From IMG/VR virus record IMGVR_UViG_3300017779_000001: DNA of 64,000 nucleotides. The stretch is one strand, 5' to 3'. A program made the translations under genes and the position numbers. Each line of letters begins with the position of its first letter. Position 1 is the stretch's first letter. The notes under the pieces are model-generated. The model saw nothing but the letters and a program-made list of their open reading frames with translations. It did no database searches and was not told where the DNA came from. The DNA is from a virus. Below, one piece after another: positions 915 to 60,795 of this stretch.

Positions 915-1730
915 ATGGCAATACCAAACTCAAGGGCATCATTTAAAGAATATATTCTAAGAAGTCTTGGAGCTCCAGTGATTGAAATCAACGTGGATGA
1001 TGACCAAGTAGATGATAGAATAGATGAAGCCTTGCAATACTACAACGAATACCATTACGATGGTTCTATTCGTACCTATCTAAAACATCAATTGACTCAA
1101 AGTCAAATTGATACCATGAAGACTAACGAAACACATACTGGTGTTAATAGTTCCAGTAATGCATATCAAAGTCAAGAGTTCAAAGAAGAACAATCATATG
1201 TAGTGTTACCCGAATCAGTATTATCAGTAGTACGAATATTTCCTTTCAACGATAAACACAACCTCAATATGTTTGACCTTAGATATCAACTAAGATTGAA
1301 TGATGTATATGACCTAACTGCAACTAATGTATTGTACTACGAACAAGTGCAACAACACATCAGTCTATTAGACCATATGTTAGTGGGTGAAATACCTATA
1401 AGATATAAACAAGTTACTAACAGGTTATACCTAGATATGGATAAAGATTCTGTTACTGCTGGTGAGTTTATCTTGATTGAGTGTTTTAGAAAACTAGACC
1501 CTACGACTTATACAGACATATACAATGACATGTGGTTAAAAAGATATACAACTGCATTAGTTAAATATCAATGGGGTTCAAACCTTTCCAAATTCGGTGG
1601 GATGCAATTGCCTGGCGGAGTTGAGTTAAACGGAAATGAAATAATGACACAAGCACAGGAGGAGATTCGAAGACTAGAAGAGGAATCAAGATTGAACTAT
1701 GAATTACCTCCTATAGATATGATAGGTTAA
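915..1730 (+). CDS. gp13: neck protein gp13
   Basis: LGAPVIEINVDDDQVDDRIDEALQ, QWGSNLSKF.G.QLPGG; T4 synteny. Confidence 0.95.
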   Translation: MAIPNSRASFKEYILRSLGAPVIEINVDDDQVDDRIDEALQYYNEYHYDGSIRTYLKHQLTQSQIDTMKTNETHTGVNSSSNAYQSQEFKEEQSYVVLPESVLSVVRIFPFNDKHNLNMFDLRYQLRLNDVYDLTATNVLYYEQVQQHISLLDHMLVGEIPIRYKQVTNRLYLDMDKDSVTAGEFILIECFRKLDPTTYTDIYNDMWLKRYTTALVKYQWGSNLSKFGGMQLPGGVELNGNEIMTQAQEEIRRLEEESRLNYELPPIDMIG

Positions 1731-1732
1731 TT

Positions 1733-2602
1733 ATGCCAACAAATGTATTTTTCAATCATGCAGTATCGTCTGAACAACACCTGTATGAAGACTTAGTTGT
1801 TGAGTCACTTAGAATGTATGGTCACAACATCTACTATCTTCCTAGGGAGATAATAGAAGAAGACACCATTTTAGGAGAAGATGTTGCATCAAAATTTGGA
1901 GATGCATATGAGATTGAAGCATATCTAGAAAACGTAGAAGGATTTGAAGGAGAAGGAGACTTATATTCTAAGTTTGGTGTAGAGATAAGAGACCAAGCAA
2001 CCTTTGTGATTGCACTTAGAACATGGGAAAGATTCGTATCTCTAGATAATAACCTCACCTCATCATTCAGACCAAACGAAGGTGATGTAATACACTTCCC
2101 TCTCAGTGGTTCTTTATTTGAAATTAAGTTTGTTGAACATGAAGACCCATTCTATCAAGTCGGTAAGCTCTTTGTATTCAAGTGTAGATGTGAATTATTT
2201 GAATATAGAGGAGAAGATTTTGACACTGGTACTAATGCAGACTTGGTTGAAGCAGAAAGAACATACACTATAAGTGCAACAATGACTGCTGGTTCAGGAG
2301 ACTCAGGTAATTACACAGAAAATGAAGAACTTAAGATTGGTGATAATGTTATTGGTGAAGTGTCTACATATAAAAGGTCTAACAGAACTCTTACAATCAT
2401 ACACAACAATACACCACTTGCAGTGGGTGACAGATTAGTAGGTGCAGTGTCAGGTGCAACTAGACAGATACAAACAATTACCGATGCACTTGATATGCCA
2501 AATGACCCGAATGCACAAAATAAAGAATTCGAAGATGCAGCTGATAATTACATAGACTTCAGTGAAACAAACCCTTTCGGTGAGATAGGAAATAATAGTT
2601 AA
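1733..2602 (+). CDS. gp14: neck protein gp14
   Basis: YYLPRE, SKFG.EIRD, RPNEGD.I.FP, FEIKFVEHEDPFYQ.GK, C-terminal DFSE.NPFG. Confidence 0.95.
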   Translation: MPTNVFFNHAVSSEQHLYEDLVVESLRMYGHNIYYLPREIIEEDTILGEDVASKFGDAYEIEAYLENVEGFEGEGDLYSKFGVEIRDQATFVIALRTWERFVSLDNNLTSSFRPNEGDVIHFPLSGSLFEIKFVEHEDPFYQVGKLFVFKCRCELFEYRGEDFDTGTNADLVEAERTYTISATMTAGSGDSGNYTENEELKIGDNVIGEVSTYKRSNRTLTIIHNNTPLAVGDRLVGAVSGATRQIQTITDALDMPNDPNAQNKEFEDAADNYIDFSETNPFGEIGNNS

Positions 2603-2604
2603 TC

Positions 2605-4071: not shown

Positions 4072-5641
4072 AGGTTATCTAGGTAACACTCAAATCAAAC
4101 GTGCAAACGTTGAGACGAAGTATACCAAAGAAGAACTAGACGAATATCTCAAGTGTCAACAAGACCCTTGTTATTTTATTGAATCTTATACACAGATTAT
4201 CTCTCTTGATGAGGGTATGGTTCCTTTTAAGTTACGTGGATATCAAGAAAGTTTAATAACACATTATAATGAAGAAAGATTCAGTATAGTACTTGCATCG
4301 AGACAAAGTGGTAAGTCTATTACGTCTTGTGCATATTTACTATGGTATCTATTGTTTACACCCGAAGTTACAGTAGCTGTTCTTGCAAACAAAGGTGCAA
4401 TTGCAAGAGAGATGGTTGCAAGGATAACTACTATGTTAGAATCTGTTCCTTTCTTTTTACAGCCTGGGGTTAAGATTCTAAACAAAGGTAATATAGAATT
4501 TGGTAATGATAGTAAACTAGTTGCAGCTGCAACATCATCATCATCAATTCGTGGACTTTCTATTAATATGTTGTACCTAGATGAGTTTGCATTCGTTGAA
4601 AATGCAGAAGAGTTCTACACTGCAACATATCCCGTGGTTACTTCAGGTAGAGATTCTAAGGTAATTATCACTTCTACTGCAAACGGTGTGGGTAATATGT
4701 TCCATAAAATATATGAAAGTGCAACTGTAGGTGAATCAGAATACAAATCGTTTCTGATAAACTGGTATGATGTTCCAGGCCGTGATGAAGAATGGAAGAA
4801 ACAAACTATTGCAAACACTTCTGAGTTACAGTTTCAACAAGAGTATGGTAATAGTTTCTTAGGAACGGGTAATACACTTATTGCATCTGATACACTGTTA
4901 GGATTACGTTCATCAAATCCTATCTGGCACAAGGAAGGTTTTAGTGTTTATAAAAAGCCAGAGAAGACTCACACCTATATATGTACTGTAGATGTATCGA
5001 AAGGGAGAGGTTTTGACTATTCAACCTTTACAATTTTCGATGTATCCACTGAACCATTTGAACAGGTTGCAGTATATAGAGACAATATGATATCTCCATT
5101 ACTGTATCCCGATGTAATTGCAAAATATTGTTCACACTATAACACTGCATTAGTGATTATAGAAAACAATGCAGAGGGAGCTGTGGTTGCACAACAGATG
5201 CATTATGATTTAGAATATGATAATGTATTCGTTCAGGGTGGTTTAAGATTAGAAGACATCGGGGTAACAATGACCCGAAAGATTAAAAGAATAGGAACTT
5301 CTACACTTAAGGAAGTGTTAGAAGAAAATAAATTGAAAATTTGTGATAGGGAGTTGATAAAAGAACTCTTAACTTATGTGAATAAAGGAATGTCTTTTGA
5401 AGCAGATAGAGGTTATCATGATGATTTAGTTATGAATTGTGTGGTGTTTAGTTGGTTTTTAACAACTCAATTTTTTGAACACCTAACAAACAATAAAGTT
5501 AAAGACTTACTATACGCAGGACAACAACAGGAAATATATGACGATGTCTTACCAGTAGGAGTTTTTGGAGAACTGGATAAAGAGTCTCACTCATTTGTAG
5601 ACACGAGTGGAGACCGATGGTATTTACAAGAGAACGACTAA
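4052..5641 (+). CDS. gp17: terminase large subunit gp17
   Basis: Walker A SRQSGKS, Walker B LYLDEFAF, ITSTANG, nuclease DVSKG.G.DYS, HDDLVM. Confidence 0.97.
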   Translation: MVNPKNEGYLGNTQIKRANVETKYTKEELDEYLKCQQDPCYFIESYTQIISLDEGMVPFKLRGYQESLITHYNEERFSIVLASRQSGKSITSCAYLLWYLLFTPEVTVAVLANKGAIAREMVARITTMLESVPFFLQPGVKILNKGNIEFGNDSKLVAAATSSSSIRGLSINMLYLDEFAFVENAEEFYTATYPVVTSGRDSKVIITSTANGVGNMFHKIYESATVGESEYKSFLINWYDVPGRDEEWKKQTIANTSELQFQQEYGNSFLGTGNTLIASDTLLGLRSSNPIWHKEGFSVYKKPEKTHTYICTVDVSKGRGFDYSTFTIFDVSTEPFEQVAVYRDNMISPLLYPDVIAKYCSHYNTALVIIENNAEGAVVAQQMHYDLEYDNVFVQGGLRLEDIGVTMTRKIKRIGTSTLKEVLEENKLKICDRELIKELLTYVNKGMSFEADRGYHDDLVMNCVVFSWFLTTQFFEHLTNNKVKDLLYAGQQQEIYDDVLPVGVFGELDKESHSFVDTSGDRWYLQEND

Positions 5642-12345: not shown

Positions 12346-13656
12346 ATGTTCTTATCAGAAGATTTACAAAAGAAATGGGAACCTATCTTAGAGCATTCCG
12401 ATTTACCAAAAATCGAGGATAACTACAAGAGAGCAGTCACAGCTGTTATCTTGGAGAACCAAGAGAATGCACTTAACGAAGATAGAGCAACCTTATCAGA
12501 AGCAGCTCCATTGAATGCAACTGGTTCAAGTGCAATTAGCAACTGGGAGCCAATCCTTATATCATTGGTTAGAAGAGCAATGCCAAATCTCGTAGCTTAC
12601 GACATTTGCGGTGTTCAACCAATGACTGGCCCGACAGGTCTTATCTTCGCTATGAAAGCAAGATATAACGACTATCCATCAGTGGGTAGAGAGGGTAAAT
12701 CAGAAGCATTAGGAATCAACGAACCCGTTTCATCATATTCAAGTGCAGCACAATCATCAGCAGCAGGCGCACAGCAAGCTGCAATCGGTGACCCATTTGA
12801 TACATCATCACCATCATACGAATCAACAACTGGTTCAGGAATGTCTACAGCAACAGCTGAAGCATTAGGTGATAGTTCATCAAATAGTTTTGCAGAAATG
12901 TCTTTCACAATTGAGAAAGCAACTGTTACTGCGAAATCAAGAGCACTTAAAGCTGAATACACATTAGAATTAGCACAAGACCTTAAAGCAATTCATGGTC
13001 TTGACGCTGAGTCAGAACTTGCTAACATTCTTTCATCAGAAATTTTAGCAGAAATTAATAGAGAAGTTGTAAGAAGTGTTAACCTTCAAGCAAAAACTGG
13101 AGCAGAAGATACTGCATCAGCCGGTACATTCAACCTAGACGTTGATGCTAACGGAAGATGGTCAGTAGAGAAGTTCAAAGGTCTATTATTCCAAATCGAA
13201 AGAGAATCAAACAAGATTGCTAAAGAATCAAGAAGAGGTAAAGGTAACTTTATCCTATGTTCTTCAGACGTAGCATCTGCTCTTTCTATGGCAGGAGTAT
13301 TAGATTATGCACCAGCTTTAGCAACTAACTTAAACGTAGACGACACAGGTAATACATTTGCTGGTGTTCTTAACGGAAGAGTAAAGGTCTATATAGACCC
13401 TTATGCATCTGTTAACTACCTAACAGTTGGTTACAGAGGTTCAAACCCATACGACGCAGGTATGTTCTATTGCCCTTACGTTCCATTACAAATGGTACGT
13501 GCAGTTGGTGAGAACACATTCCAACCAAAAATCGGTTTCAAAACTAGATATGGAATGATTTCAAATCCATTCGTAGGTGATACACCTTCAAGTGGTCTTG
13601 CATCAAATGGTTCTAACTTCTACTATAGAAAAATGGCTGTAAGCAATATTCTATAA
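12346..13656 (+). CDS. gp23: major capsid protein gp23
   Basis: LVRRAMPNL.AYDICGVQPMTGPTGLIFAM, KSRALKAEY..ELAQDLKAIHGLDAE, FQPKIGFKTRYG. Confidence 0.98.
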   Translation: MFLSEDLQKKWEPILEHSDLPKIEDNYKRAVTAVILENQENALNEDRATLSEAAPLNATGSSAISNWEPILISLVRRAMPNLVAYDICGVQPMTGPTGLIFAMKARYNDYPSVGREGKSEALGINEPVSSYSSAAQSSAAGAQQAAIGDPFDTSSPSYESTTGSGMSTATAEALGDSSSNSFAEMSFTIEKATVTAKSRALKAEYTLELAQDLKAIHGLDAESELANILSSEILAEINREVVRSVNLQAKTGAEDTASAGTFNLDVDANGRWSVEKFKGLLFQIERESNKIAKESRRGKGNFILCSSDVASALSMAGVLDYAPALATNLNVDDTGNTFAGVLNGRVKVYIDPYASVNYLTVGYRGSNPYDAGMFYCPYVPLQMVRAVGENTFQPKIGFKTRYGMISNPFVGDTPSSGLASNGSNFYYRKMAVSNIL

Positions 13657-15098: not shown

Positions 15099-15542
15099 AT
15101 GAATCTAGAACAATTAAAAGAAGAATGGAACAAAGATACTCAGATTGATGACATCGAATTAGATAAATCAAGTCTTGAGATTCCCAAACTTCATGCAAAA
15201 TACTCAAGTCTGTTATCAGACAAACTAATTACACTTAAGAAAATACAATTCGAATTATCCAAAATTACCAAACTGAAATGGTTATGGTACAGTGGTAAAC
15301 TTTCACAAGAAGAAATAAAAACATTGGGATGGGAAAATGACCCATTCGATGGTCTTAAAGTAATGAAGTCAGACTACAACTATTACTTCAATGCAGATGA
15401 GGATATTCAAAACTTGAATGGTAAAATCGAATACCTAAACGTCTGTATACAATTCTTACAAAAGTGTATGGAGAACATCACTTGGAGACACCAAACAATC
15501 AAGAACACGATTGATTGGAGAAAATTTATGGCAGGTCAATAA
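15099..15542 (+). CDS. uvsY: recombination mediator UvsY
   Basis: D.QIDD.ELD..SL.IPKLH.KY, W.WYSGK, IKN.IDWRKF. Confidence 0.9.
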   Translation: MNLEQLKEEWNKDTQIDDIELDKSSLEIPKLHAKYSSLLSDKLITLKKIQFELSKITKLKWLWYSGKLSQEEIKTLGWENDPFDGLKVMKSDYNYYFNADEDIQNLNGKIEYLNVCIQFLQKCMENITWRHQTIKNTIDWRKFMAGQ

Positions 15543-15543
15543 A

Positions 15544-23649: not shown

Positions 23650-24291
23650 ATGTATGAATTAGTAGAAGAAGCTAGTAAAGTTTTACGAACCCCACCACCA
23701 CAATTTGATTTCGACAATCCGTCTCATGACCCAAAGGAAATATCAGACAAACTGATTGAGTTATGTACACAGTATAACGGTATAGGATTATCTGCAAATC
23801 AAGTGGGATTACCCGTGAAGTGTTGTGTCATGATGACAACAGAAGGTGCAAAGATATTCTTTAACCCCGAGTTGAAAGCAGTGTCACAAGAAACAGAGTT
23901 AGAGAAAGAAGGATGTCTATCATTTCCCGACATCTATGTCTCTATCAAAAGACCAAAAATAGTCGAAGTAGAATATCAAGATGTGAATGGTGAAACACAA
24001 AGTGAACAACTACAAGGACTTGCATCAAGATGTATACAGCATGAGATTGACCATTTGAATGGAATAGTATTTCTCCAACGTGCATCAAGATTAAAACTAG
24101 AACGTGCATTGAAAGCTCGTCCTAAAGAACAAAGAAAGAGATTAGAATATGAAGCCAGACTTAAAGTTGTTGAAGAAATCAGAAGAAGAGCCGAAGAAGC
24201 TAAAGTTCATCAAGAAAGTGAACGTACTGAGTTACACTCAGAGGAAGAACCTAATACACTTCCACAAGACTCATCCGAATCTTCTAAGTAA
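23650..24291 (+). CDS. def: peptide deformylase
   Basis: GIGLSANQVG, EGCLSFP, QHEIDHLNG. Confidence 0.95.
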   Translation: MYELVEEASKVLRTPPPQFDFDNPSHDPKEISDKLIELCTQYNGIGLSANQVGLPVKCCVMMTTEGAKIFFNPELKAVSQETELEKEGCLSFPDIYVSIKRPKIVEVEYQDVNGETQSEQLQGLASRCIQHEIDHLNGIVFLQRASRLKLERALKARPKEQRKRLEYEARLKVVEEIRRRAEEAKVHQESERTELHSEEEPNTLPQDSSESSK

Positions 24292-42572: not shown

Positions 42573-43082
42573 ATGAGTTTTGTTACAGCAGGAGAAACTA
42601 GAATACCGAAGACCCATCTCACACAGAGAGTTGAAGATAACTTTGATGTTATCAACACTCAGAAAATGTTTGAGACAGGTAAGAATGTATTCTTCACTTT
42701 GCCAGGCGCATACACACCAACTTGTTCGACTAGACAACTTCCTCGTTATGAAGAATTATTCGAAGAGTTCCAAGGTAAGGGTGTTGACAACATTTACTGT
42801 TTTTCAGTGAATGATGGTTTCGTTATGAACGCATGGTCAAACGACCTAAATATAACAAAGGTCAAGATGATTGCAGATGGAAATGGTTCCTTTGCAAATA
42901 AACTTGGTATTTTGGTTGATAAATTAAACTTAGGATTTGGTAAACGTGCATGGAGATGTGCAGCTGTCGTTGAAGACGGACTAATCACTCAATGGTATGA
43001 AGAGCCTGGTATCTCTCAAGATGCTAGTAATGACCCATACAAGGTTACTAACCCTGAAAACATCCTTTCAAACTTGGAGTAA
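42573..43082 (+). CDS. peroxiredoxin (Prx5-type)
   Basis: LPGAYTPTCS, SVNDGFVMNAW, DGNG.F, GFG.R.WR. Confidence 0.92.
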   Translation: MSFVTAGETRIPKTHLTQRVEDNFDVINTQKMFETGKNVFFTLPGAYTPTCSTRQLPRYEELFEEFQGKGVDNIYCFSVNDGFVMNAWSNDLNITKVKMIADGNGSFANKLGILVDKLNLGFGKRAWRCAAVVEDGLITQWYEEPGISQDASNDPYKVTNPENILSNLE

Positions 43083-43316: not shown

Positions 43317-43331
43317 TCTAAAAGAGTTCTC

Positions 43332-43360
43332 GGGGGTTCTCTTACCAACCCCCATTTTTA
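43332..43360 (+). terminator. probable terminator
   Basis: GGGGGTT-N8-AACCCCC then ATTTTT. Confidence 0.65.
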
Positions 43361-43409
43361 TTTTAAAAAACATCTAGACAACACGTCTAGATTATTATAT
43401 AATGAATCT

Positions 43410-43844
43410 ATGTATCGAGTAATCAAAACTTACGGAAATGACAGAGGTCTATCTTGTGCATTCAGACAATGGAAAGCAGATAGTCACTGTAATTTAATTC
43501 ACGGGTATTCCCTTGGTTTTAAAATCACTTTCGAAGCAGACACACTAGACTCTAGAAATTGGGTAATTGACTTTGGAGATTTCTCTAAACTTAAGAACTT
43601 CCTAGAGGATACATTTGACCACACAACTGCAGTCGCAGAAGACGACCCTCATATCTACACTTTCAGAAAGTTATCACATGACGGTTTAATCAGATTGGTG
43701 ATGATGGAAAATGTAGGATGTGAAATGTTTGCTAAATATGTTTACGATTACTGTGTACAAGAGTACAACGATGACAGAGTAAAAGTACACTCAGTAGAGT
43801 GTTTTGAACATGGAGCAAACAGTGCTATATTCGGAAATTTTTAA
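43410..43844 (+). CDS. queD: 6-carboxytetrahydropterin synthase QueD-like
   Basis: SHC.LIHGY, WVIDFG, FDHT, GCE.FA, EHGANSA. Confidence 0.88.
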   Translation: MYRVIKTYGNDRGLSCAFRQWKADSHCNLIHGYSLGFKITFEADTLDSRNWVIDFGDFSKLKNFLEDTFDHTTAVAEDDPHIYTFRKLSHDGLIRLVMMENVGCEMFAKYVYDYCVQEYNDDRVKVHSVECFEHGANSAIFGNF

Positions 43845-44643
43845 AAGTATTCAAGGAGAAGGACATTACACTGGAGTCCCAACTGCATGGTTGAGATTCT
43901 TTGGATGTAATCTTGAGTGCAATGGTTTCGGTCAGAATGACCCAACAGACCCATCCACATACGAATTACCTTTCGAAAAGATAAGCTTAACAGACATTAC
44001 ACAAGTAGAAGAGTTACCTGTATTTAAGTATGGGTGTGACTCATCTTACTCTTGGTCAAAGAAGTTTGCACATCTACAACACAAAGAGACACCCGAAGAA
44101 GTTGCAGATAGATTAGATGACTTGTTAAAAGACAACTGGCATCTTGCATTTACTGGTGGAGAACCATTACTTAGAGCTGCACAGAAGAACATGGTAAAGA
44201 TACTCAACAGAATACCAAAACAGAATTACATTACCATAGAAACAAATGGTACACAAATCATACGTGAAGAACTAGAAACGTATATCAGTCACTACCCACA
44301 TAAAGAATTTTTCTTTTCTATCAGTCCCAAAATCTTCAATACTAGTGGAGAAAAGGATGCAGTCAAACCCGAAGTTGTAAAACAATACCATGACCTATCA
44401 CGACATGGTCAACTTAAGTTTGTATGTAATGGAACAGATGAATCATGGGAAGAGATTGAAAATGCAATCCAATCCTTCCGTGACGTTGGTGTCAGATATC
44501 CTATATGGATTATGCCTGTAGGTGCATTAGAAGAAACACAACAAGAGAATGCAGCTATGATTGCAGAACAAACAATGGATAGAGGATATAATGTATCTGC
44601 AAGAGTTCACTGTTACATATGGGGTAACCAAATCGGAACATGA
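43810..44643 (+). CDS. queE: 7-carboxy-7-deazaguanine synthase QueE (radical SAM)
   Basis: EIF.SIQGEG..TG.P...LRFFGCNLEC...GCDS, FTGGEP, IETNGT, SISPK. Confidence 0.92.
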   Translation: MEQTVLYSEIFKSIQGEGHYTGVPTAWLRFFGCNLECNGFGQNDPTDPSTYELPFEKISLTDITQVEELPVFKYGCDSSYSWSKKFAHLQHKETPEEVADRLDDLLKDNWHLAFTGGEPLLRAAQKNMVKILNRIPKQNYITIETNGTQIIREELETYISHYPHKEFFFSISPKIFNTSGEKDAVKPEVVKQYHDLSRHGQLKFVCNGTDESWEEIENAIQSFRDVGVRYPIWIMPVGALEETQQENAAMIAEQTMDRGYNVSARVHCYIWGNQIGT

Positions 44644-45398
44644 GTGTAAATATGATAACAAATAATAGAGAGAAAGTCAGAGGTAAGACTGTTCTTCTCT
44701 ATAGTGGTGGACAAGACTCAATAATCATTGACCACCTTTTACAACCCGATGTCTTACTGAACATTAGTATGAAATCTAATTATGACCATAGAGAAAGAAT
44801 GTCTATGAGTGGATTGGATGAGAGGATGATATTTCTTGATGATGTGTTAAACCTAGGACAATTTGAAAGAGACGATGCAATAGTTCCAAACAGAAATGCA
44901 CACTTGGTTTTGATTGCATCTTACTATGGTGAACATATCATGATGGGTTCAGTCAGTGGTGACAGGTCATATGATAAAGATGAGGTATTCTATCTAAGGA
45001 TGATGGACTTACTTAATCACATGTGGCAAGAACAACACTGGACTGAGGAAAGAAGATTTACAATTGAATCACCATACAAAGACAAAACAAAAACAGAATT
45101 AGTAAAAGAGTTTATCGAAGTAAAAGGTATAGACTTTGCAACGAAAGAACTATTCCAATCCTATTCATGTTATGAAGGTAGATTGAAACACTGTGGTCAG
45201 TGTAAAGCATGTTTTAGAAAATGGGTATCACTAGTGAACAACGATATATTTTTTGATGAAGACTACTGGGAAAATAATCCAATTAAAGCAAAATGGCTTG
45301 ACGATATAAAAGACTCAGTGTATAATAGAACATACCGTGGTAAAGAAGACAGTGACATACAGAGAGCATTGGTTCTTAATGGAGACTGGAAGATATAA
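44640..45398 (+). CDS. queC: 7-cyano-7-deazaguanine synthase QueC-like
   Basis: LLYSGGQDS, VPNRN, SYSCY...HCGQCKAC. Confidence 0.85.
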   Translation: MSVNMITNNREKVRGKTVLLYSGGQDSIIIDHLLQPDVLLNISMKSNYDHRERMSMSGLDERMIFLDDVLNLGQFERDDAIVPNRNAHLVLIASYYGEHIMMGSVSGDRSYDKDEVFYLRMMDLLNHMWQEQHWTEERRFTIESPYKDKTKTELVKEFIEVKGIDFATKELFQSYSCYEGRLKHCGQCKACFRKWVSLVNNDIFFDEDYWENNPIKAKWLDDIKDSVYNRTYRGKEDSDIQRALVLNGDWKI

Positions 45399-45460
45399 AT
45401 ATATGTGTTACACAAAGGTAACAACATATCACAAAACATAACCGAGTAAGGAAGGTAAAA

Positions 45461-46144
45461 ATGGCATATAACAAAACCAAAACAGACCCAGCATTGGGTT
45501 TGGAAATTCACAACCATCTACATAAAGTTGGTGTAGAAACACCAACGAAACAGAATGGTCTAAGTCGTACAGACAAAATAGAAAACATAGAAAGACACAT
45601 GGAACAAATCATGAAGACCCTTGGTCTAGATTTATCCGATGACAGTCTAATTGATACACCAAAAAGAGTTGCAAAGATGTATGTCAATGAAGTCTTTTGG
45701 GGTCTTGACTATGAAGCATTCCCTAAGTGTACTGCAGTAGATAACAAGATGAAGTATGAGAACATGATTGTTGAAACAAACATAAGTGTTCAATCAAACT
45801 GTGAACATCACTTCGTAGTAATTGATGGTACTGCAACAGTAGCTTACATACCAAAACAAAAAGTCTTAGGTCTTAGTAAGATGAATCGTATCGTAGAATA
45901 CTTTTCTAAGAGACCACAAATACAAGAGAGACTAACAGAACAAATCTATCATGCATTATCATACATTCTTGATACAGAAGATGTTGCAGTCGTAGTTGAT
46001 GCACAACACTACTGTGTAAAGAGTAGAGGTGTAGAAGATACAGGGTCATCAACAATCACATCTAGATTAGGTGGTGCATTTTTTGATGATGATAAAACAA
46101 GAACAGAGTTCATGCAAATAGTTTGGGGAAAAAGATGTCAGTAA
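45461..46144 (+). CDS. folE: GTP cyclohydrolase I
   Basis: TPKRVAKMY, S.CEHHF, GLSK.NR.V....KRPQIQERLT, HYCVKSRG. Confidence 0.97.
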   Translation: MAYNKTKTDPALGLEIHNHLHKVGVETPTKQNGLSRTDKIENIERHMEQIMKTLGLDLSDDSLIDTPKRVAKMYVNEVFWGLDYEAFPKCTAVDNKMKYENMIVETNISVQSNCEHHFVVIDGTATVAYIPKQKVLGLSKMNRIVEYFSKRPQIQERLTEQIYHALSYILDTEDVAVVVDAQHYCVKSRGVEDTGSSTITSRLGGAFFDDDKTRTEFMQIVWGKRCQ

Positions 46145-46377
46145 CAATACCCGATATTATTGGTTTTGTAGGAGTAGGATTACTGATAGTAACCTATGCA
46201 CTACTACAGTTAGACCGTATTGACCCGAAAGGTTTTTGGTACAGTTTCAACAATATGATGGTTGCAATACTTGTGACTGTGAGTTTAGTTTACACACCTA
46301 ACCTTGCAAGTCTAGTGATTGAATTCTTTTGGTTTTTTATTAGTGTGTTTGGATTATGGAAGTTTTACACTAGATGA
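46135..46377 (+). CDS. small 3-TM membrane protein (CBU_0592-like)
   Basis: D.IG.VGV.L....YALLQ...I......YS..N; N.AS.VIE.FW..IS. Confidence 0.65.
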   Translation: MSVTIPDIIGFVGVGLLIVTYALLQLDRIDPKGFWYSFNNMMVAILVTVSLVYTPNLASLVIEFFWFFISVFGLWKFYTR

Positions 46378-47660
46378 ATTTTGAATATGTAATATCGGGA
46401 ATGACAATGGGTACAGGGGACTTGTACTATAAACCAAGTTCACTTCAACCTTATGTATCTGTGTTCAATGATAAGATATCATACATGGATGACAAGTACA
46501 AGAATCAGAATATATCAATGTTATTCAACTCACACTGTGAACCAAAACATGGAGAATGTATTCATGACTTGATGCCTTCATGGTGTAATCTTTTTGCAGA
46601 TAGTGGTGGTCTACAATTGTCAAGGACAAAGAAAGGACTCACTGGTGAAATTAAAGATAAGATATACAGACACCAAGCTCAGTACTCAGATGTGGGTATG
46701 ATATTTGATGATATCCCTACAGAATTTGATGGTAGTAATACAGGTTGGTCAATGAAAACTTCTACAACAGGTAGAAGATTTGCAAAAGAATTGATACAAC
46801 AGAAAGCAAACTCTACACTTGCAAATGTTAGGAGACAGATAAGTGTGTTCGATGCAATGGAGTCAGACACTAAAGTGTCACTGATTGTACAGGGTCAAGA
46901 TGTAGATTCATACAGACAATACATTGAAACTATCGTCAATGGTTTAACGGATGAAGAACTACAACGATGTGCATCAATATCATTATCATCTGCATGTTCA
47001 GGTACTGGATTTGTAAACAGAATGGAGATGTGTTATGCAGTATCTGAGTTTCAGATACCTATGGAACTTAAAAAGAATATACACTTACTAGGTGTAGGGT
47101 CACATGAGATGATGACTGCATTCTTTGTATCACCCGAATACTTTTCATTTGTAGAGAATCTATCATATGATTCATCGACACAAGCAAACTCTTGGTTCTT
47201 CTCTAGATACAGAACACAAGAATGGGTGAACATCGATATCGATTCACCATCAAGAAACTACAACAGTGAACAGATTTATAACGAACAGTTGATTCCGTCT
47301 ATTGGAGATATCTACAATAAGAATAAGGATGCATTCCTAACATTCGGAATCAACTCCTTTGATACACTTATCGAGGAGTCAACCAAGTGGTCTAGTAAGA
47401 ACACTGAAAGAGAAAGACTGTACAACAGTCCCGAAGGAGAAGATGGTGCAAAACTTTTACCATTCTTCAATCAGATGCAAGTAGTTGAACACTTCATGGA
47501 TAGAGTTGATACACTATCAAACAAACCATCAAGTGTAAATGACAGAGGTCTAAGACAAATTAAAGATTGGGATATGTTTAAAAACTGGTTAGGATATCAA
47601 GGTACACAAGATAAACTACCAACAGAATTTGGAGGAAATTTAGATGAGTTCTTCGGTTAG
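46374..47660 (+). CDS. DNA deazaguanine transglycosylase (TGT fold, DpdA2-like)
   Basis: FADSGGLQ, MIFDDIP, IVQG, IHLLGVG, SYDSST; lies next to folE/queDEC. Confidence 0.8.
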   Translation: MNFEYVISGMTMGTGDLYYKPSSLQPYVSVFNDKISYMDDKYKNQNISMLFNSHCEPKHGECIHDLMPSWCNLFADSGGLQLSRTKKGLTGEIKDKIYRHQAQYSDVGMIFDDIPTEFDGSNTGWSMKTSTTGRRFAKELIQQKANSTLANVRRQISVFDAMESDTKVSLIVQGQDVDSYRQYIETIVNGLTDEELQRCASISLSSACSGTGFVNRMEMCYAVSEFQIPMELKKNIHLLGVGSHEMMTAFFVSPEYFSFVENLSYDSSTQANSWFFSRYRTQEWVNIDIDSPSRNYNSEQIYNEQLIPSIGDIYNKNKDAFLTFGINSFDTLIEESTKWSSKNTERERLYNSPEGEDGAKLLPFFNQMQVVEHFMDRVDTLSNKPSSVNDRGLRQIKDWDMFKNWLGYQGTQDKLPTEFGGNLDEFFG

Positions 47661-47982
47661 TCCACTATTTGATGGGGGATTCTACAGAGTTGTAGAAAGT
47701 CCATATGAGAAAGAAGCTGGTATAGAAATTATGCATGGTGAGTTTACAGGTGTCATTTATCAATATGGTAATGTAGATTTTGTAGATGGTAAACCCGAAC
47801 TAAACTTTCAGAGAACTATTAGAAAATGGGATGATGAAAGGTGGGATTTAGAGTCACTTGAACAGAACGAAGAACTAAATAATACCATGGGTGATATACT
47901 GGTAGAGCTCATCCAAACACAAATTAAGAAGGACACAGAAAATGAACCAAGAATTATTGAAGGAACAGATAAAGAGACATGA
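47644..47982 (+). CDS. hypothetical protein
   Basis: G.F.GVIYQYG.V.F, MGDILVELI. Confidence 0.65.
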   Translation: MSSSVSPLFDGGFYRVVESPYEKEAGIEIMHGEFTGVIYQYGNVDFVDGKPELNFQRTIRKWDDERWDLESLEQNEELNNTMGDILVELIQTQIKKDTENEPRIIEGTDKET

Positions 47983-48916: not shown

Positions 48917-51427
48917 ATGGATTTTTACACTAACGTCACCCGTTTCGGGAACAAACTCCTCGTCAGAGGATATCAAAAAGGTAAACCTAAGAAGATGTCT
49001 GTTAACTACAGACCAAATCTTTATGTGTTATCTAAAACACCCTCATCCCATAGAACGATTGATGGGAGATATCTCGAACCCGTAAACCTAGACTCTATGT
49101 CAGGTGCAAGAAAGTTCAAAGAGAAGTATGATGGTATCGCAGGATTTGAAGTACATGGATACGACAAGTGGATGTACAACTGGATATCAGATAGGTTCCA
49201 AGGTGAAATCAAATACGACCCAAGTCAAATCAAGATTGCAACACTTGACATTGAGTGTGAGTGTGAGAATGGGTTTCCCGACCCACTCATTGCAATGGAA
49301 AAGGTCAATGCAATATCAATCAAACCATTTGGTAAAGACACTATCGTACTAGGATACGGTGAGTGGAATCATAACCAAGACAATGTAATCTATATCCCAT
49401 GTGGTTCAGAGTCAGACTTGTTAATGAAGTTCGTCAAAGTGTGGAGAGAACTAAACCTTGACATCGTCACAGGTTGGAACGTAGATAGTTTCGACATCAC
49501 ATATCTTTGTAATCGTATCGATAGGATATTGGGTGAGAATGAACACAAGAAACTATCACCATGGGGTTCATCAGAAACACGTGAGTTCACAACTTATGGA
49601 TATCAAAAGAATGTAAACTATACACTTCATGGTATCAATATCATTGACTATCTAGAACTATACAAGAAGAATACTTTTGTCAATCAAGAGTCATACAAAC
49701 TTGACCACATTGCAAAGGTAGAACTTGGTAAACAGAAACTAGATTACTCTGAGTATGGTTCACTCCATATGTTGTATCAAAAGAACTATGAGAAGTTTCT
49801 AGAATACAATATACGTGACGTTGTTCTTGTTGAAGAACTAGAAGACAAACTAGGTCTCATGGAACTTATCATGTCACAAGCTTACACTGCAAAGTGTAAT
49901 TTCAGTGACACCTTTGGTATGGTAAAGTATTGGGAAACTATCATCTACAACTTCCTCAAAGAACGTGGTATTCAGATGCCTCCTAAGAAAATACAGGGTG
50001 AAGACAAATCAAAACAGATTGTCGGTGCATATGTAAAGGAACCACATGTAGGTAAACATGATTGGGTAGTGTCATTTGACTTGAACAGTCTATACCCACA
50101 TTTGATTATGCAATATAACATCTCACCCGAGACTATGCAGAAAGGTTCATATGGAGATGCAAGTGTAAAGAAACTCTTAAACAAAGAGTGTGACTTATCT
50201 TATCTCAAGAAACAGAATCTATCGATGACAGCAAACGGTGCAATGTTCAGTAGAAAGAAACAAGGATTCCTTCCCGAACTCATGGAAACATTCTATGATG
50301 AACGTAAGATGTGGAAGAAGAAGATGATTGAGTATCAGATTGAGAAAGAACAGACATCGGATGTCAAACGACTGAGGGAACTTGATACACTTATCAAACG
50401 TGCATACAACAATCAACAGGTCAGAAAGATTGCACTTAACTCAGCTTATGGTGCATTAGCAAACAGATGGTTTGCATTCTTTAGTGTACCGATGGCAGAA
50501 GGAATTACGACCAGTGGACAGTTATCTATTCAGTGGGCAGAAAAACAAATCAACGGTTACTTACAAAGTGTTCTTGATGATGATAAGGACAGAGTTATTG
50601 CAATCGACACAGACTCTGTGTACATCACACTAGATGACTTAGTGCAAAAAGTGTTTCCCGAAGAAACAGACAAGCAAAAAATTATTACGTTTATCGACAC
50701 TGTTGCAAACACGAAGATTAAACCAATCATCGATGAAGGTTACGAAGACCTTGCAGAATACATGAACTCATATCAACAAAAGATGGAGATGGGTAGAGAG
50801 GTGATTGCAGACAGGGGTGTATGGACTGCAAAGAAAAGATATATTCTTAATGTACATGACAACGAAGGTGTACGACTTGCAAAACCTAAACTCAAAATGA
50901 TGGGTATTGAAACTGCAAAGTCCTCAACTCCACAGTGGGTTAGAACAAAACTGGAAGAAGGTTTCAATGTTGCAATGACAGGAACAGAACAAGAACTGTG
51001 GGACTTCGTAGAGAATGCAAGGACTGAGTTCTTTTCTCTACCACCCGAGGTGGTTGCATTCCCTAGAGGAGTGAGAAACCTCAAACAGTATCAAGGTGAG
51101 AATACAGTATATCGTAAGTCCACACCGATACATGTTAGAGGGTCACTACTGTTTAATCATTACCTTGAAGAAAAGAATCTCAAGGGTAAGTATGAGACTA
51201 TCAAAGAAGGTGAGAAGATACACTTCTGTTATCTTACACTCCCGAATCCAATCAACGAAAATGTTATTGGTTTTGTTGGAGAGTTACCAAAAGAGTTTGA
51301 TTTACACAAGTTTACAGACTATGATATGCAATTCAACAAAGCATTTCTAGACCCATTGAGAGTGGTGGTGCATTTAATGGGGTGGAATACAGAACCGACT
51401 GCATCCCTAGATAGTTTCTTTACATAA
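48917..51427 (+). CDS. gp43: family B DNA polymerase gp43
   Basis: Exo DIE, GWN...FD; SFDLNSLYP, K..LNSAYG, DTDS, KKRY. Confidence 0.98.
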   Translation: MDFYTNVTRFGNKLLVRGYQKGKPKKMSVNYRPNLYVLSKTPSSHRTIDGRYLEPVNLDSMSGARKFKEKYDGIAGFEVHGYDKWMYNWISDRFQGEIKYDPSQIKIATLDIECECENGFPDPLIAMEKVNAISIKPFGKDTIVLGYGEWNHNQDNVIYIPCGSESDLLMKFVKVWRELNLDIVTGWNVDSFDITYLCNRIDRILGENEHKKLSPWGSSETREFTTYGYQKNVNYTLHGINIIDYLELYKKNTFVNQESYKLDHIAKVELGKQKLDYSEYGSLHMLYQKNYEKFLEYNIRDVVLVEELEDKLGLMELIMSQAYTAKCNFSDTFGMVKYWETIIYNFLKERGIQMPPKKIQGEDKSKQIVGAYVKEPHVGKHDWVVSFDLNSLYPHLIMQYNISPETMQKGSYGDASVKKLLNKECDLSYLKKQNLSMTANGAMFSRKKQGFLPELMETFYDERKMWKKKMIEYQIEKEQTSDVKRLRELDTLIKRAYNNQQVRKIALNSAYGALANRWFAFFSVPMAEGITTSGQLSIQWAEKQINGYLQSVLDDDKDRVIAIDTDSVYITLDDLVQKVFPEETDKQKIITFIDTVANTKIKPIIDEGYEDLAEYMNSYQQKMEMGREVIADRGVWTAKKRYILNVHDNEGVRLAKPKLKMMGIETAKSSTPQWVRTKLEEGFNVAMTGTEQELWDFVENARTEFFSLPPEVVAFPRGVRNLKQYQGENTVYRKSTPIHVRGSLLFNHYLEEKNLKGKYETIKEGEKIHFCYLTLPNPINENVIGFVGELPKEFDLHKFTDYDMQFNKAFLDPLRVVVHLMGWNTEPTASLDSFFT

Positions 51428-56712: not shown

Positions 56713-57918
56713 ATGGCAGTTAAGAATCTACATTTAGAACATCTCGAAGACGAAATCATTAATAATGGAATTGATGGTGGAAGAGCAGCTATCAACTTCC
56801 TTCGTGGTCTTCGTGACATGATGAAGGGAAACTCCAAGAAAGGAGTCAACATGACTGTAAAGTGGGATGGAGCTCCTGCTATATTCTGTGGTCTACATCC
56901 CGAAACAAATCAATTCTTTGTTGCAAAGAAATCACTCTTCAACAAGGAACCTAAATACTACACTTCCGAACAACAAATCAAAGATGCAGATGAACTAAGT
57001 GGAGACTTAGAAACAAAGTTCATTGAATCATACAAACACTTATCTAAACTAACATGGACTAATGTCATGCAAGGTGACTTGATGTTTACAGAGTCAGATA
57101 AGAAAGAAAAGAACATCGATGGTACACAATGTATCACATTCCAACCCAACACTATCTTATATGCAGTAGACAAAACTTCTCAGTTGGGTCTAACTATTGA
57201 TGATGCAAAATATGGTATTGTGTTTCACACTACTTACAGTGGTGACACTATAGAAGACCTATCTGCATCATTCGGTGCATCCACTAGTTCATTAGGTTCA
57301 AACAGAGATGTGTGGATAGATGATGCATCATATAAAGATGAGAGTGGTAAGTCATCAATGACTGCAAAAGAAACACTTGAACTGTCCAAACACCTTACAC
57401 TATCGGGTAGAAACTTTCATCAGATAAAAAGAAAAGACTTGACTAAGTTCAATAAAGTCCAACAAGAATTTGCAAACAAAGGTATGGTAGGTGCATCATA
57501 TAAGACATACTGTAATTCAATGATTCGTACTGGTAAGTACAATCCTACTACATTAGGATATCTAAAACACGTAGAAGATAAGTGGAATGCAAAAATTAAA
57601 ACATACAAACAAGAAAAAACTAAACAAGCAAAAACTGAAATCAGAGACCAATTACTGAGAGAACTAAAATCAATCAAGAGAATGATTGATGGACTCACTG
57701 CATTCCAAAAAGGTTTGATGGATGCAAAACAATCAATCATCGTTGCACTCAACAGAGTTAAGAGTATTGGTACTTTTGTAAAAACTGATACAGGATACAA
57801 GGTAGTAAACCCCGAAGGATACGTTGCAATTGATAGAGATGGTAAAGCTGTCAAGTTAGTAGACCGTATGGAATTCTCACTAAATAACTTTACAGTTGCA
57901 AAGAACTGGGACAAATAA
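56713..57918 (+). CDS. conserved T4-like phage protein (ligase/nucleotidyltransferase-like motifs)
   Basis: KNLHLEHLED, TVKWDGAPA (KxDG), QGDLMF, PEGYVA, KLVDR.EFS. Confidence 0.6.
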   Translation: MAVKNLHLEHLEDEIINNGIDGGRAAINFLRGLRDMMKGNSKKGVNMTVKWDGAPAIFCGLHPETNQFFVAKKSLFNKEPKYYTSEQQIKDADELSGDLETKFIESYKHLSKLTWTNVMQGDLMFTESDKKEKNIDGTQCITFQPNTILYAVDKTSQLGLTIDDAKYGIVFHTTYSGDTIEDLSASFGASTSSLGSNRDVWIDDASYKDESGKSSMTAKETLELSKHLTLSGRNFHQIKRKDLTKFNKVQQEFANKGMVGASYKTYCNSMIRTGKYNPTTLGYLKHVEDKWNAKIKTYKQEKTKQAKTEIRDQLLRELKSIKRMIDGLTAFQKGLMDAKQSIIVALNRVKSIGTFVKTDTGYKVVNPEGYVAIDRDGKAVKLVDRMEFSLNNFTVAKNWDK

Positions 57919-59228
57919 TGAAAGAGTTTAAATCATTTATATCAGAAGCAAAAAGTAAACCAGCAGTGTTTACTTTTGGTCGTTTCAATCCACCTACAAA
58001 CGGACATGAAAAACTTGTAGACCAAATGGTCAAAGTGTCTAAACAAGTAGGAGGGGAACCCATCCTGTTCTCATCACACTCTAGTGACAAAGTAAAGAAT
58101 CCACTTACACATAAAGACAAAGTCAAATTTTTAAAATCATTCTTTGGTAGAAAAGTAAACGTAGTAAACGAAGACGTAAAACAGATATTTCAAATACTAG
58201 TGTTCTTATATGACAAAGGATACAGAAACATAGTTATGATTGTAGGTTCAGATAGGATTGCAGAATTCAAAAACATAATAACAAAATATAACAGTGTAAA
58301 AGGTAGACATGGTTTCTATAAGTTTGATGACATTTCAGTTGTATCAGCAGGAGAGAGAGACCCCGATGCAGATGATGTAAGTGGGATGTCTGCATCTAAG
58401 ATGAGAATGTTTGCAGAGAAAGGTGACCTTGAGTCATTCACAGAAGGTGTTCCATCTTCAGGTAAGAGACTTGCAAAGAAATTATACAATGCAGTAAGAA
58501 AGGGAATGGGTATCAAAGAGGTTACACAATTTCCAAAGTATATGATTGATGACATGTTGAATGAAGGACTGTTAACTGAAGGAGTGTACGACCAAGGTAT
58601 CTTCAAGGCAGTGTTCCTCATGGGTGGGCCAGGTTCAGGTAAGTCAACTGTGGTTGATAAACTTGCACTACCATCACTAGGTTTAAAACTAGTAAACACT
58701 GATAGAGCATTTGAGAATGGTTTGAAGAAAGCAGGTATGTCATTAGATTTAAGAAAAGCATCTGATGATGACTATGCACCTATCAGAGCAAAGGCAAAGA
58801 AGATTACAGGTAAACAAATGGGTGCATATATCAATGCAAGATTAGGAATGATATTTGACACTACAGCTGCAAAGAAATCTAAGATTCAAGATTACAAAGA
58901 TTTACTAGACCAAGCAGGATATGAATATAAAATGGTCTATGTAAAAACATCACTTAAGAATGCACTCAAAAGAAATCAGATGAGACCAAGAAAACTCAGA
59001 GACGACATAGTCATAAACGATTGGAATAATGCAGAGAAGAATGCAAAACAATTTAAACAGATGTTTGGAAGAGACTTCATTGAAGTAGTCAATGACGATG
59101 ACCTTGCATCATTAGATACAAAGGTAAACAAACTGTTTGGTAAAGTCATGACATGGGCATCTAAGTTCCCTACAAATGATAAAGCACAAGATTGGAAACA
59201 ATCAGAACTCACCAAGAAAAAACGATAA
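57918..59228 (+). CDS. cytidyltransferase-like domain fused to P-loop kinase
   Basis: FTFGRFNPPT.GH, VGSDR, MSASKMR; second domain LMGGPGSGKST, IFDTT. Confidence 0.8.
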   Translation: MKEFKSFISEAKSKPAVFTFGRFNPPTNGHEKLVDQMVKVSKQVGGEPILFSSHSSDKVKNPLTHKDKVKFLKSFFGRKVNVVNEDVKQIFQILVFLYDKGYRNIVMIVGSDRIAEFKNIITKYNSVKGRHGFYKFDDISVVSAGERDPDADDVSGMSASKMRMFAEKGDLESFTEGVPSSGKRLAKKLYNAVRKGMGIKEVTQFPKYMIDDMLNEGLLTEGVYDQGIFKAVFLMGGPGSGKSTVVDKLALPSLGLKLVNTDRAFENGLKKAGMSLDLRKASDDDYAPIRAKAKKITGKQMGAYINARLGMIFDTTAAKKSKIQDYKDLLDQAGYEYKMVYVKTSLKNALKRNQMRPRKLRDDIVINDWNNAEKNAKQFKQMFGRDFIEVVNDDDLASLDTKVNKLFGKVMTWASKFPTNDKAQDWKQSELTKKKR

Positions 59229-59236
59229 ATAGTATT

Positions 59237-59878
59237 ATGTTAGATTTAATTAGAGAAAAGATAAAGACTGCACAAGACAAAGATGTCGAGGACAAGAAAG
59301 GTACCCAACCTAAAAGATACTACGCTGCAGATGCAGATGGTGATAAGATGTCTAAGAAGACAAAAGATAAACGTGCAGCTCATTTTGCAAAGAATTCTAA
59401 AAAGGACGATGATGACTCAAGTGCATATAAGAAAGCACCAGGCGATGCAAAGGCAGACACTAAACCATCACAGTACACTAAACAATACAAGAAGATGTTC
59501 GGTGAAGAACAATACACAGACTTAGACGAAGGAAAACTCGTAGGTAATACAGGTTTCATTATAGACACTCTTGCAAAAATGGTAAAGAGAGAAGTCGGTA
59601 AAGAGATGAGCTCAAGTAGAGAAAAGGGTGTAGTGTTAATGAACAAGATTGCACGTATGGTAGGTGCAAGTGTATCAATGTCACATAAAAGACCAACTAC
59701 AGACTTATTCATTAAATCAAGTTATGCATTCATAAATGACGGTGAAAACGTTGACGAAGAATGTTGGGACACACACATGCAAAAAGGTATGAAAAAGAAG
59801 GGAAACAAGATGGTTCCTAATTGTGTACCCAAAGAAGATAAGGATGCAGATAAAAAAATTAAGAAGGAGAAAAAATGA
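59237..59878 (+). CDS. modular basic late protein
   Basis: GATAAATA 5 nt upstream; APGD...TKPSQYT..YKKMFGE and CW...GMKKK....VPNCVP modules. Confidence 0.65.
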   Translation: MLDLIREKIKTAQDKDVEDKKGTQPKRYYAADADGDKMSKKTKDKRAAHFAKNSKKDDDDSSAYKKAPGDAKADTKPSQYTKQYKKMFGEEQYTDLDEGKLVGNTGFIIDTLAKMVKREVGKEMSSSREKGVVLMNKIARMVGASVSMSHKRPTTDLFIKSSYAFINDGENVDEECWDTHMQKGMKKKGNKMVPNCVPKEDKDADKKIKKEKK

Positions 59879-60795
59879 GTGGTAATAAACACGACAATGG
59901 TGTACATGAGATAGGTACATCAGAAATGAAAAATGCATATATGGAAGATACTCCAGGCCAAATGGTTGAGAGATACATCAAAGAAGCAAAAAAGAAAAAT
60001 GATGATGTAAAACAAAAGTTACACTTTAGTCAGAAGTTTGATAATCCTTTGAAAGGTTTCCCATATAACGAATCAGTAGAGGTTGATGAAGGTGCATTCT
60101 ATGGTAGAGATGATTTGGTAAAACAATTTGCACCCACTAAAGCACAGAAAAAACTCAATGTCAGATTAGTTAAAAATGACAAAAAGGGATACTCACGTGC
60201 AACTTTAAACATCAAGAAAGACAAGAAGAAGATTGCACAACTTAAGAAGGATGGGTATAAAGTAGACCCAACATACTACACTGAAGAATACATAGAAGAA
60301 GATGTTATGAGTTTTCTTTCAGTTGCACTACCAGCTTATATAGCAGTAAATACAGTCGCACTTGTAGGTCTTATAGCATCCGAAATGGCAGGAATTGATA
60401 TTATTGGTAAAACTGAAAAAGCAATAGAAAACATAAAAAGTAAATTCAAAAGAAATAAAAATTATAAACCTTCAAATAGTGAACTAGAAACTCTTAAAAA
60501 AGTTGGTCAGGAAATTAAAAAGAAAGACCCCAGTGCATATAAAAAGGCACAACAAAAAGTAAACAGCATGAAAGAATCTTTTGAACCTCTAGAAGAAGAT
60601 TCATTCGATGACAAGTCAAAGAAAAGTGGTATCAGTGTTGGTGTACTTAAGAAAGTATATAAACGTGGAGTCGCTGCATGGAAGACAGGACATAGGCCTG
60701 GTACAACACCTGAACAGTGGGGTCATGCAAGAGTGAATGCATTTATTGTCAAGAAGAAAAAAGGTAATTTAAACCACGACAAGGACTTAGCATGA
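59875..60795 (+). CDS. modular late protein
   Basis: C-terminal SGI....LKKVY.RG.AAW.TGHRPGTT..QWG.ARVN.F module. Confidence 0.65.
   Translation: MSGNKHDNGVHEIGTSEMKNAYMEDTPGQMVERYIKEAKKKNDDVKQKLHFSQKFDNPLKGFPYNESVEVDEGAFYGRDDLVKQFAPTKAQKKLNVRLVKNDKKGYSRATLNIKKDKKKIAQLKKDGYKVDPTYYTEEYIEEDVMSFLSVALPAYIAVNTVALVGLIASEMAGIDIIGKTEKAIENIKSKFKRNKNYKPSNSELETLKKVGQEIKKKDPSAYKKAQQKVNSMKESFEPLEEDSFDDKSKKSGISVGVLKKVYKRGVAAWKTGHRPGTTPEQWGHARVNAFIVKKKKGNLNHDKDLA

Follow-up and report, generated by a model that had tools for sequence, protein, structure and literature searches.

The 64,000-nucleotide stretch of IMG/VR virus record IMGVR_UViG_3300017779_000001 analysed here (the window) carries a queD-queE-queC-folE-dpdA gene cassette of an uncultured marine T4-like myovirus lineage. 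We report that this sequence has been purged of several restriction-type words, and that every surviving copy of CCWGG, CCGG and CCAGA (W = A or T) has a G:C pair directly 5′ of CC on at least one strand, which sets GCC opposite GGC. The best explanation, to which we assign a probability of roughly 0.55, is that the putative DNA-guanine transglycosylase DpdA would write dPreQ0 (the deoxynucleotide form of preQ0, 7-cyano-7-deazaguanine) at GGC and so shield restriction sites that the phage cannot avoid.

The window contains 21 CCWGG sites, a total on which a regular-expression count and a pattern search agree (Table 1). All 21 are in-frame Pro-Gly codon pairs, the window genes being all on the plus strand, and all are flanked: the 3′ base is C in 16 and the 5′ base is G in the other 5, so that none has neither flank. 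Gly after Pro is accordingly encoded by GGC in 16 of 21 cases, while this codon supplies 40 of the 1,259 Gly codons in the window (3.2%; GGT 735, GGA 390, GGG 94). The codons ahead of the five Pro-Gly sites with another Gly codon all end in G (CAG, AAG, GAG, GGG and AGG). C follows 10 of 285 DCWGG (D = any base except C), compared with 16 of 21 CCWGG. Gly-Pro pairs follow the same pattern, with nine GGC-CC and three GGG-CC among 12, and the sole CCGG is preceded by G. As a null model we used 1,000 synonymous-codon shuffles within called genes, which keep both protein sequence and codon usage. The shuffles give a mean of 32.3 CCWGG, of which 4.8 are flanked (15%, maximum 12), and a mean of 27.5 unflanked sites (minimum 15) compared with 0 observed. 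The exempt, flanked form is about 4-fold enriched over this null and the bare form is eliminated, confirming that the footprint is real and strongly non-random. An explanation by one asymmetric motif, HCCAGR/YCTGGD, fails because the G would then always lie on a fixed side, which is not so at sites such as 4463, 4775 and 15889.

A preliminary description of this DNA, made by reading the letters, had listed the same 21 sites as all overlapping GGC, with Gly elsewhere mostly GGT or GGA, a G-ending codon ahead of the five non-GGC Gly codons, a single CCGG within GCCGG, and 12 Gly-Pro pairs all reading GGC-CC or GGG-CC. The full counts agree with it on each point. The many unflanked CCWGG that it had named as potential counter-evidence do not exist, and the codon-shuffled control that it had proposed gives the contrast reported above.

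The purge extends well beyond CCWGG. GATC is absent from the window (codon-shuffle mean 187), as are GGWCC (25), CCSGG (CCCGG/CCGGG; 9.4) and GTGCAC (9.1), while CCTGCA and CCGG are each left with one copy (24 and 32 in the shuffles) and CCAGA/TCTGG with three (96). Depletion against a null that preserves proteins and codon usage is restriction-site avoidance, and the set of words implies that several different host nucleases are at work, including an asymmetric one. All three surviving CCAGA carry a 5′ G, compared with 8% in codon shuffles, a flank that the preliminary description had not reported. Among the 64 CCNNN words, an excess of 5′ G is seen only at the CCAGA, CCWGG and CCGG words and the level elsewhere is approximately 5%; an unbiased scan for 5′-flank skew over all 4-5-mers in each of the cassette classes described below returned only secondary effects of the purge. 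Three target words, one of them asymmetric, with one shared exemption fit modification at GCC/GGC and can hardly be explained by separate nuclease flank preferences.

This nucleotide-level avoidance has altered protein sequences. The window encodes 21 Pro-Gly and 9 or 12 Gly-Pro pairs (depending on the set of open reading frame (ORF) calls) versus 37 expected from composition. Across the purging phages (the window, G014, G013, G001 and G002) the two pairs stand at 24–57% of the composition expectation, compared with near 100% in non-purging relatives, and hence the avoidance reaches the proteome.

Relatives were collected as loci anchored on polB. DpdA-bearing relatives, drawn from IMG/VR and a protein collection, form five lineages with 67–77% mutual DpdA identity, and their pooled unique sites follow the rule at 77 of 80 CCWGG, 15 of 17 CCAGA (5′ G) and 3 of 3 CCGG. 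Two of them that do not avoid GATC (L006 with 27 copies and L105 with 59) still keep it, and hence the rule is not a side effect of the complete set of enzymes in a single host. Orthologous Pro-Gly pairs in the helicase and redoxin genes switch between solutions (AGA|CCT GGC, AGG|CCA GGT, AAG|CCT GGT, TTG|CCT GGA and CTA|CCT GGC), and never lack both flanks. Given that synonymous sites are assumed to be saturated at 63–68% polB identity, such switching between xxG|CCW GGT and xxA|CCW GGC is read as a sign that the flank rule is under continuing selection and not simply inherited. The DpdA-bearing contig G014 (153.5 kb) has 39 of 42 CCWGG flanked, 8 of 10 CCAGA with the flank, one GATC and neither CCSGG nor CCGG. 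Its que-dpdA cassette wraps round the contig ends (L209 8-688; L216 11185-13514), and the contig is therefore probably a complete, circularly permuted genome. At the place of queC, the G014 cassette has a DUF6884/YaaA-like gene and a 226-amino-acid gene without assignment.

The cassette lies in a hot spot upstream of polB that runs from the redoxin gene to the phrog_3998 gene (43083-47643 in the window, 5396-8718 in L016, 7217-8743 in L043, 5843-8740 in L071, 3421-7141 in L053 and a 34-nucleotide gap in L017). In different phages this interval carries at least four unrelated DNA-modification cassettes, and it is visibly empty in one, L017. Class A is the queD-queE-queC-folE-dpdA cassette of the window. 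Class B pairs a C5-cytosine methylase with a Tet_JBP dioxygenase (and a P-loop kinase) in L016, L057 and G013. Class C consists of a DruA-like protein of 370 amino acids with cytidylyltransferase-like and glycosyltransferase-like proteins in L071, L034 and L053 (in L053 also a TET-associated glycosyltransferase), and class D of a 508-amino-acid protein from a viral N4-cytosine-methylase-like family in L043, L045 and L066. Judged by gene content and position, the preQ0/DpdA2-like cassette is allelic to cytosine-modifying cassettes, and this arrangement, alongside the footprint, is new here.

The pooled unique sites show the same rule in the other classes. CCWGG is flanked at 68 of 68 sites in class B, 32 of 35 in class C and 31 of 31 in class D, and CCAGA has the 5′ G at 37 of 51, 26 of 29 and 11 of 11 sites, respectively. 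The class B genome G013 (146 kb) has the C5-methylase/TET cassette only, and 51 of its 51 CCWGG are flanked. Non-purging relatives pooled, L017 included, have flanks at 28 of 136 CCWGG and 23 of 279 CCAGA; L017 itself shows no purge and 0 of 3 flanked CCWGG. The preliminary description had regarded the same pattern in relatives without dpdA, que genes or a methylase as a result that would tell against it. Relatives without dpdA do keep the rule, but they carry other modification cassettes at the same locus, so that this result does not tell against it. Its proposal that sites are purged unless they overlap the modified context is strongly supported by the 5′-G exemption common to CCWGG, CCGG and CCAGA, and further by the compensatory codon changes in diverged relatives and by the missing rule in non-purging ones.

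Two further relatives, G018 (L189) and G006 (L064), have two DruA-like (PF14236) genes each, with 2 of 19 CCWGG flanked in L189 and 5 of 10 in L064. DruA-like genes with no rule or a partial rule indicate that a candidate writer alone is not enough and that restriction pressure is also needed. It is possible, although we hold the idea with somewhat less than even confidence, that unrelated cassettes at one hot spot (7-deazaguanine; 5-methylcytosine or 5-hydroxymethylcytosine via TET; DruA-like with glycosyltransferases; N4-methylase-like) all write to the same GCC/GGC base pair, that the codon-level site grammar locks this address so that only cassettes with the same address can be exchanged, and that the DpdA2-like enzyme would be the first DpdA2-type one to have its motif predicted.

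GGC and GCC are themselves rare in the window, with 214 copies versus 334 in the shuffles. The presumed target motif may be kept rare because modification is costly, because the enzyme has limited capacity or because some defences recognise modified bases. Per kb, GGC+GCC is lowest in DpdA-class phages (3.1–3.9), followed by the N4-methylase-like class (4.2–5.5) and classes B and C (5.7–6.8). Of the Gly codons, GGC accounts for 3% in the window and 1.6–4.3% in a distant DpdA clade.

This second marine T4-like DpdA clade (L108 6102-11860; L110 6463-11692) has queD, queE, queC, folE and a dpdA whose product is about 48% identical. The cassette lies between gp44 and gp62, which encode the clamp loader, with a phosphoribosyltransferase-like gene after it. 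Flanks are found at 2 of 7 and 3 of 11 CCWGG in L108 and L110, respectively, so that the rule is missing. Given that CCWGG and CCAGA are not purged there either, this clade is uninformative on the motif and is not contrary evidence.

In the window the preQ0 pathway is complete, with FolE (PF01227), QueD (PF01242), QueE (PF04055/phrog_2076) and QueC (PF06508). No QueF, ArcS or Gat-QueC, nor any further que-type family, was found among the scanned window ORFs, and the expected cassette product is therefore dPreQ0. The ORF at 46374 has no match in Pfam (including PF01702, the model for tRNA-guanine transglycosylase (TGT)), NCBIfam or the sequences of the Protein Data Bank (PDB), whether searched as a single sequence or with a profile, and only the fold search described below placed it. 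With tblastn it is 27–32% identical (E 1e-21 to 3e-33) to genes of KVP40, VH7D, phi-ST2, pf16 and Moby-type phages, some of which are annotated as queuine tRNA-ribosyltransferase; this group is the DpdA2 of Hutinet et al. 2019 (PMC6884629). Homology and the preQ0 genes directly upstream place the ORF in the DpdA2 subfamily of the nt-1/KVP40 type, as far as sequence can assign it. Its AlphaFold2 model has a mean predicted local distance difference test score (pLDDT) of 88.9, and the top 50 Foldseek matches in the PDB are all TGTs or the DpdA structure 7ui4 (probability 1.0, E ~1e-7, template-modelling (TM) score ~0.5), so that the predicted structure has a TGT/DpdA-type TIM-barrel fold. DSGG, HLLG and S-x-DS motifs are invariant in the family, and an alignment of 30 homologues shows no variation at D76-S-G-G79, D112 or D266. 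The DSGG-type motif may be the catalytic Asp motif of TGT, and D76, D112 and D266 may be the corresponding residues. The enzyme that the preliminary description had placed at 46374 is hence borne out as a protein with a predicted TGT/DpdA fold adjoining a full preQ0 pathway. The 84-amino-acid ORF between folE and dpdA is 72% identical to its G014 counterpart, and the L105 counterpart has PF26604 (CBU_0592); its product may be a partner of DpdA.

The footprint and the cassette can be joined in one mechanism. Host nucleases would cut CCNGG/CCWGG, CCGG, CCAGA, GGWCC, GATC, GTGCAC and TGCAGG-type words, and the phage would have purged them through synonymous substitutions and, in part, through changes of amino acid. 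CCNGG being unavoidable at Pro-Gly, such a site would be placed with a G:C pair 5′ of CC, so that one strand reads GCC and the other GGC. FolE, QueD, QueE and QueC would make preQ0, and the DpdA2-like enzyme would swap a guanine in GGC for it after replication. The modified guanine, probably one lying opposite a C of the target word, would then carry its 7-cyano group in the major groove, and one modified half-site would suffice to block cutting. In relatives, other cassettes at the locus would mark the same trinucleotide (C5-methylase/TET on G-C*-C, and others), and the site grammar of the genome and the address of the modification would be co-adapted. The preliminary description had proposed GGC or GC as the motif of the enzyme. 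GTGCAC and CCTGCA contain GC but not GGC and are purged, which points to GGC rather than any GC; the GC part of the proposal is thus disfavoured, and the GGC part stands as the predicted target. General GpC methylation is disfavoured on the same grounds.

Several observations weigh against DpdA as the writer. The rule is equally strict in many relatives without dpdA or que genes and is therefore not DpdA-specific. That four chemistries should share one address is a notable coincidence, for which a shared unrecognised writer or a host mark would be simpler. The window scan covered about 65 ORFs with Pfam (6 of them with PHROGs only), and approximately 64 kb of the phage genome to the left of the window lies outside it. 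No Cys is invariant or nearly so in the DpdA2-like alignment, where TGT has a Cys/His zinc site, and the distant clade with its own dpdA lacks the rule, as described above. DpdA2 insertion in nt-1 amounts to ~0.11% of G (PMC6884629), compared with ~0.9% of G for full GGC modification in the window. The complete genome of KVP40 (NC_005083), which has a DpdA2 and no C5-methylase, shows flanks at 38 of 68 CCWGG versus a 41% baseline (P=0.011), shows no flank effect at CCGG, and strongly purges GGCC (64 versus a Markov expectation of 440). As a DpdA2 positive control KVP40 thus gives a weak enrichment without a clear GGC shield, and counts neither for nor against. Many 6-bp palindromes are likewise purged from KVP40, among them ACGCGT, CTGCAG, CAGCTG, CGATCG and CTCGAG, none of which occurs in its genome.

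Most of these points would be accommodated if the writer at GCC/GGC were an unrecognised phage gene common to all four classes, or a methylase common to the hosts, with que-dpdA acting, for instance, on another motif at low level or against another defence. One shared writer needs no convergence between four unrelated cassettes, and the low insertion by published DpdA2 enzymes would cease to matter. We nevertheless consider this unlikely. The class B enzyme type has a published GpC[C/T] specificity that matches the rule, so that a second, shared writer would be redundant there, and L017, the only visibly empty hot spot, is without the rule. No methylase family and no homologue of the proteins of the other cassettes was found among the scanned window ORFs, and neither a C5-methyltransferase (PF00145) nor Tet_JBP is present in the window, in G011 or in near-complete G014. 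Neither PF00145 nor PF01555 occurs in the 95%-identical G011, which continues for ~19 kb beyond the right end of the window. G014 lacks PF00145, PF01555 and PF14236 as well as homologues of the other cassettes' proteins, and its ORFs without a G013 counterpart contain no methylase domain. In each of the near-complete G014 and G013, the hot spot carries the only modification cassette that could be recognised, with no PF00145, PF01555 or PF14236 gene elsewhere.

A reading with no modification at all, in which host nucleases simply fail when G precedes CC and the avoided words are HCCWGGD, HCCGGD and HCCAGA, seems very improbable to us. Phages sharing a host would share such a rule whatever their cassette; HCCWGGD is symmetric, and related enzymes of the CCGG/CCNGG family with specified flanks exist. 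But a single flank exemption would have to hold for three words, one of which is asymmetric, this exemption coincides with both the published target of the relatives' methylase type and a published DpdA motif, and the sufficiency of one flank of two fits hemi-modification better than half-site reading by a nuclease. Every protected word begins with CC, which makes GC and GCC inseparable at these sites, and DpdA might thus target every G before C, or the flanking G itself, instead of GGC. This, too, is highly unlikely given that GTGCAC (0 versus 9 expected) and CCTGCA (1 versus 24 expected) are purged despite containing GC, and that GC accounts for 10.7% of all G, far beyond any reported DpdA2 level. 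We therefore retain dPreQ0 at GGC as the best explanation.

Among published systems, coliphage CAjan (DpdA1; PMC7544227, PMC6884629) is similar in having FolE, QueD, QueE, QueC and a TGT-fold transglycosylase without an amidotransferase, in sequence-specific insertion with GGC among the mapped motifs, and in protection against type II enzymes such as HaeIII. Its dPreQ0 was mapped to GA and GGC, with HaeIII blocked (Kot et al. 2020, PMC7544227), which upholds the literature statement on CAjan in the preliminary description. However, CAjan is an E. coli siphovirus that also modifies GA and replaces ~32% of all G, and no genome-wide flank-conditional purge has been reported for it. With GA and GGC both as targets, ~75% of flanks in CAjan would appear protected by chance, which would leave a flank test there without power. 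In the window GATC is fully purged, so that shielding at GA is improbable, and the load expected is the ~0.9% of G given above. The window enzyme also differs from that of CAjan in being of the DpdA2 type, with no Pfam TGT match and its similarity to the KVP40/pf16 group. The nearest cultured-phage sequence relatives are the DpdA2 proteins of the Vibrio phages nt-1, VH7D and KVP40 (Hutinet 2019; Cui et al. 2023, PMC10516641). These are likewise T4-like myoviruses with the gene adjoining preQ0 genes, and their DpdA2 is a post-replicative inserter with low insertion levels (PMC6884629, PMC10516641). The identity between the window DpdA and KVP40-type DpdA2 is only ~29%, and no target motif was found in the DpdA2 literature examined.

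The C5-methyltransferase and TET (5mYOX) clusters (PMC8256090, bioRxiv 10.1101/2023.12.21.572611) occur at the same hot spot in the class B relatives. Phage C5-methylases adjoining TET genes mainly methylate GpC[C/T], a specificity previously unknown (Burke et al. 2021, PMC8256090), and this target, the other strand of GGC, matches the rule in class B. Like the marks predicted here, theirs are sparse and post-replicative and come from marine viral contigs, although the chemistry is at cytosine C5 and not at guanine C7 and no such genes are present in the window. Opposite the methylated C of G-C*-C stands the middle G of GGC, and hence both chemistries could mark one and the same base pair from its major-groove side. 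In lytic phages, classical avoidance of restriction sites (palindromes) likewise depletes short restriction-type words strongly, but the purge in the window depends on one flanking base pair, reaches the proteome and leaves the exempt form enriched. No publication describing such a flank-conditional purge was found in our literature search.

The core genes of the window are T4-like and include those for neck, gp15, terminase, sheath, tube, portal, prohead protease, scaffold and gp23, together with UvsY, UvsW, gp46/47, gp45, gp44/62, RegA, gp43, UvsX and a gp41-like helicase. The closest cultured relatives are cyanophages with a polB identity of only 48%, which places the phage in an uncultured marine lineage, and no near-identical cultured relative was found by polB match. 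A conserved 436-amino-acid fusion of cytidylyltransferase-like and AAA_33/zeta-toxin-like kinase domains (57918-59228) is found in all cassette classes at 59–67% identity. Three genes for 2-oxoglutarate-Fe(II) (2OG-Fe(II)) oxygenases (1-594, 15511-16218 and 24149-24826; PF13759/PF13640) are present, none of which matches Tet_JBP.

Table 1 Sites of the footprint and genes in and around the que-dpdA cassette, in window coordinates.
Feature	Position	Strand	Remarks
CCWGG (21 sites)	1611, 4463, 4775, 5719, 6433, 7315, 9290, 14627, 14687, 15889, 19864		GCCWGG or CCWGGC
CCWGG (continued)	22462, 26557, 38608, 42702, 43005, 54419, 58629, 59438, 59953, 60697		GCCWGG or CCWGGC
CCGG (sole copy)	13121..13124		context GCCGG; codon-shuffle expectation 32
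CCAGA (surviving)	4923..4927	-	plus strand TCTGG then C (TCTGGC = GCCAGA)
CCAGA (surviving)	4958..4962	+	5′ G (GCCAGA)
CCAGA (surviving)	24155..24159	+	5′ G (GCCAGA)
Redoxin/AhpC-like gene	42573..43082	+	conserved left border of variable hot spot
queD, 6-pyruvoyl-tetrahydropterin synthase family	43410..43844	+	PF01242, 4e-18
queE, radical SAM	43804..44643	+	PF04055; phrog_2076 QueE-like, 1.5e-56
queC	44640..45398	+	PF06508; TIGR00364 below its cut-off
folE, GTP cyclohydrolase I	45461..46144	+	PF01227, 8e-62
Small ORF, 84 amino acids, overlapping folE and dpdA	46123..46377	+	conserved in DpdA-class relatives
DpdA2-like DNA-guanine transglycosylase candidate, 428 amino acids	46374..47660	+	phrog_10773; fold match
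Conserved small gene, phrog_3998	47644..47982	+	right border of hot spot
Family-B DNA polymerase, gp43-like (polB)	48917..51427	+	anchor for syntenic relatives

How marks at short motifs could help against nucleases of other specificity is a question raised in bioRxiv 10.1101/2023.12.21.572611, where broad protection of a genome by GpC-limited marks was considered improbable. The footprint suggests that such marks can protect, the genome being adapted to the mark, and the answer it offers is that the genome has been rewritten so that the remaining restriction targets are those under the sparse mark. For a DpdA2-type enzyme, none of which has a motif in the literature examined, it predicts dPreQ0 at GGC at ~1.7 x 10^3 per 10^6 nucleotides. 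Through the depletion of Pro-Gly and Gly-Pro, anti-restriction selection reaches the protein level, and sequence alone can reveal both which host nucleases act against a wild phage and at which motif its counter-measure is aimed.

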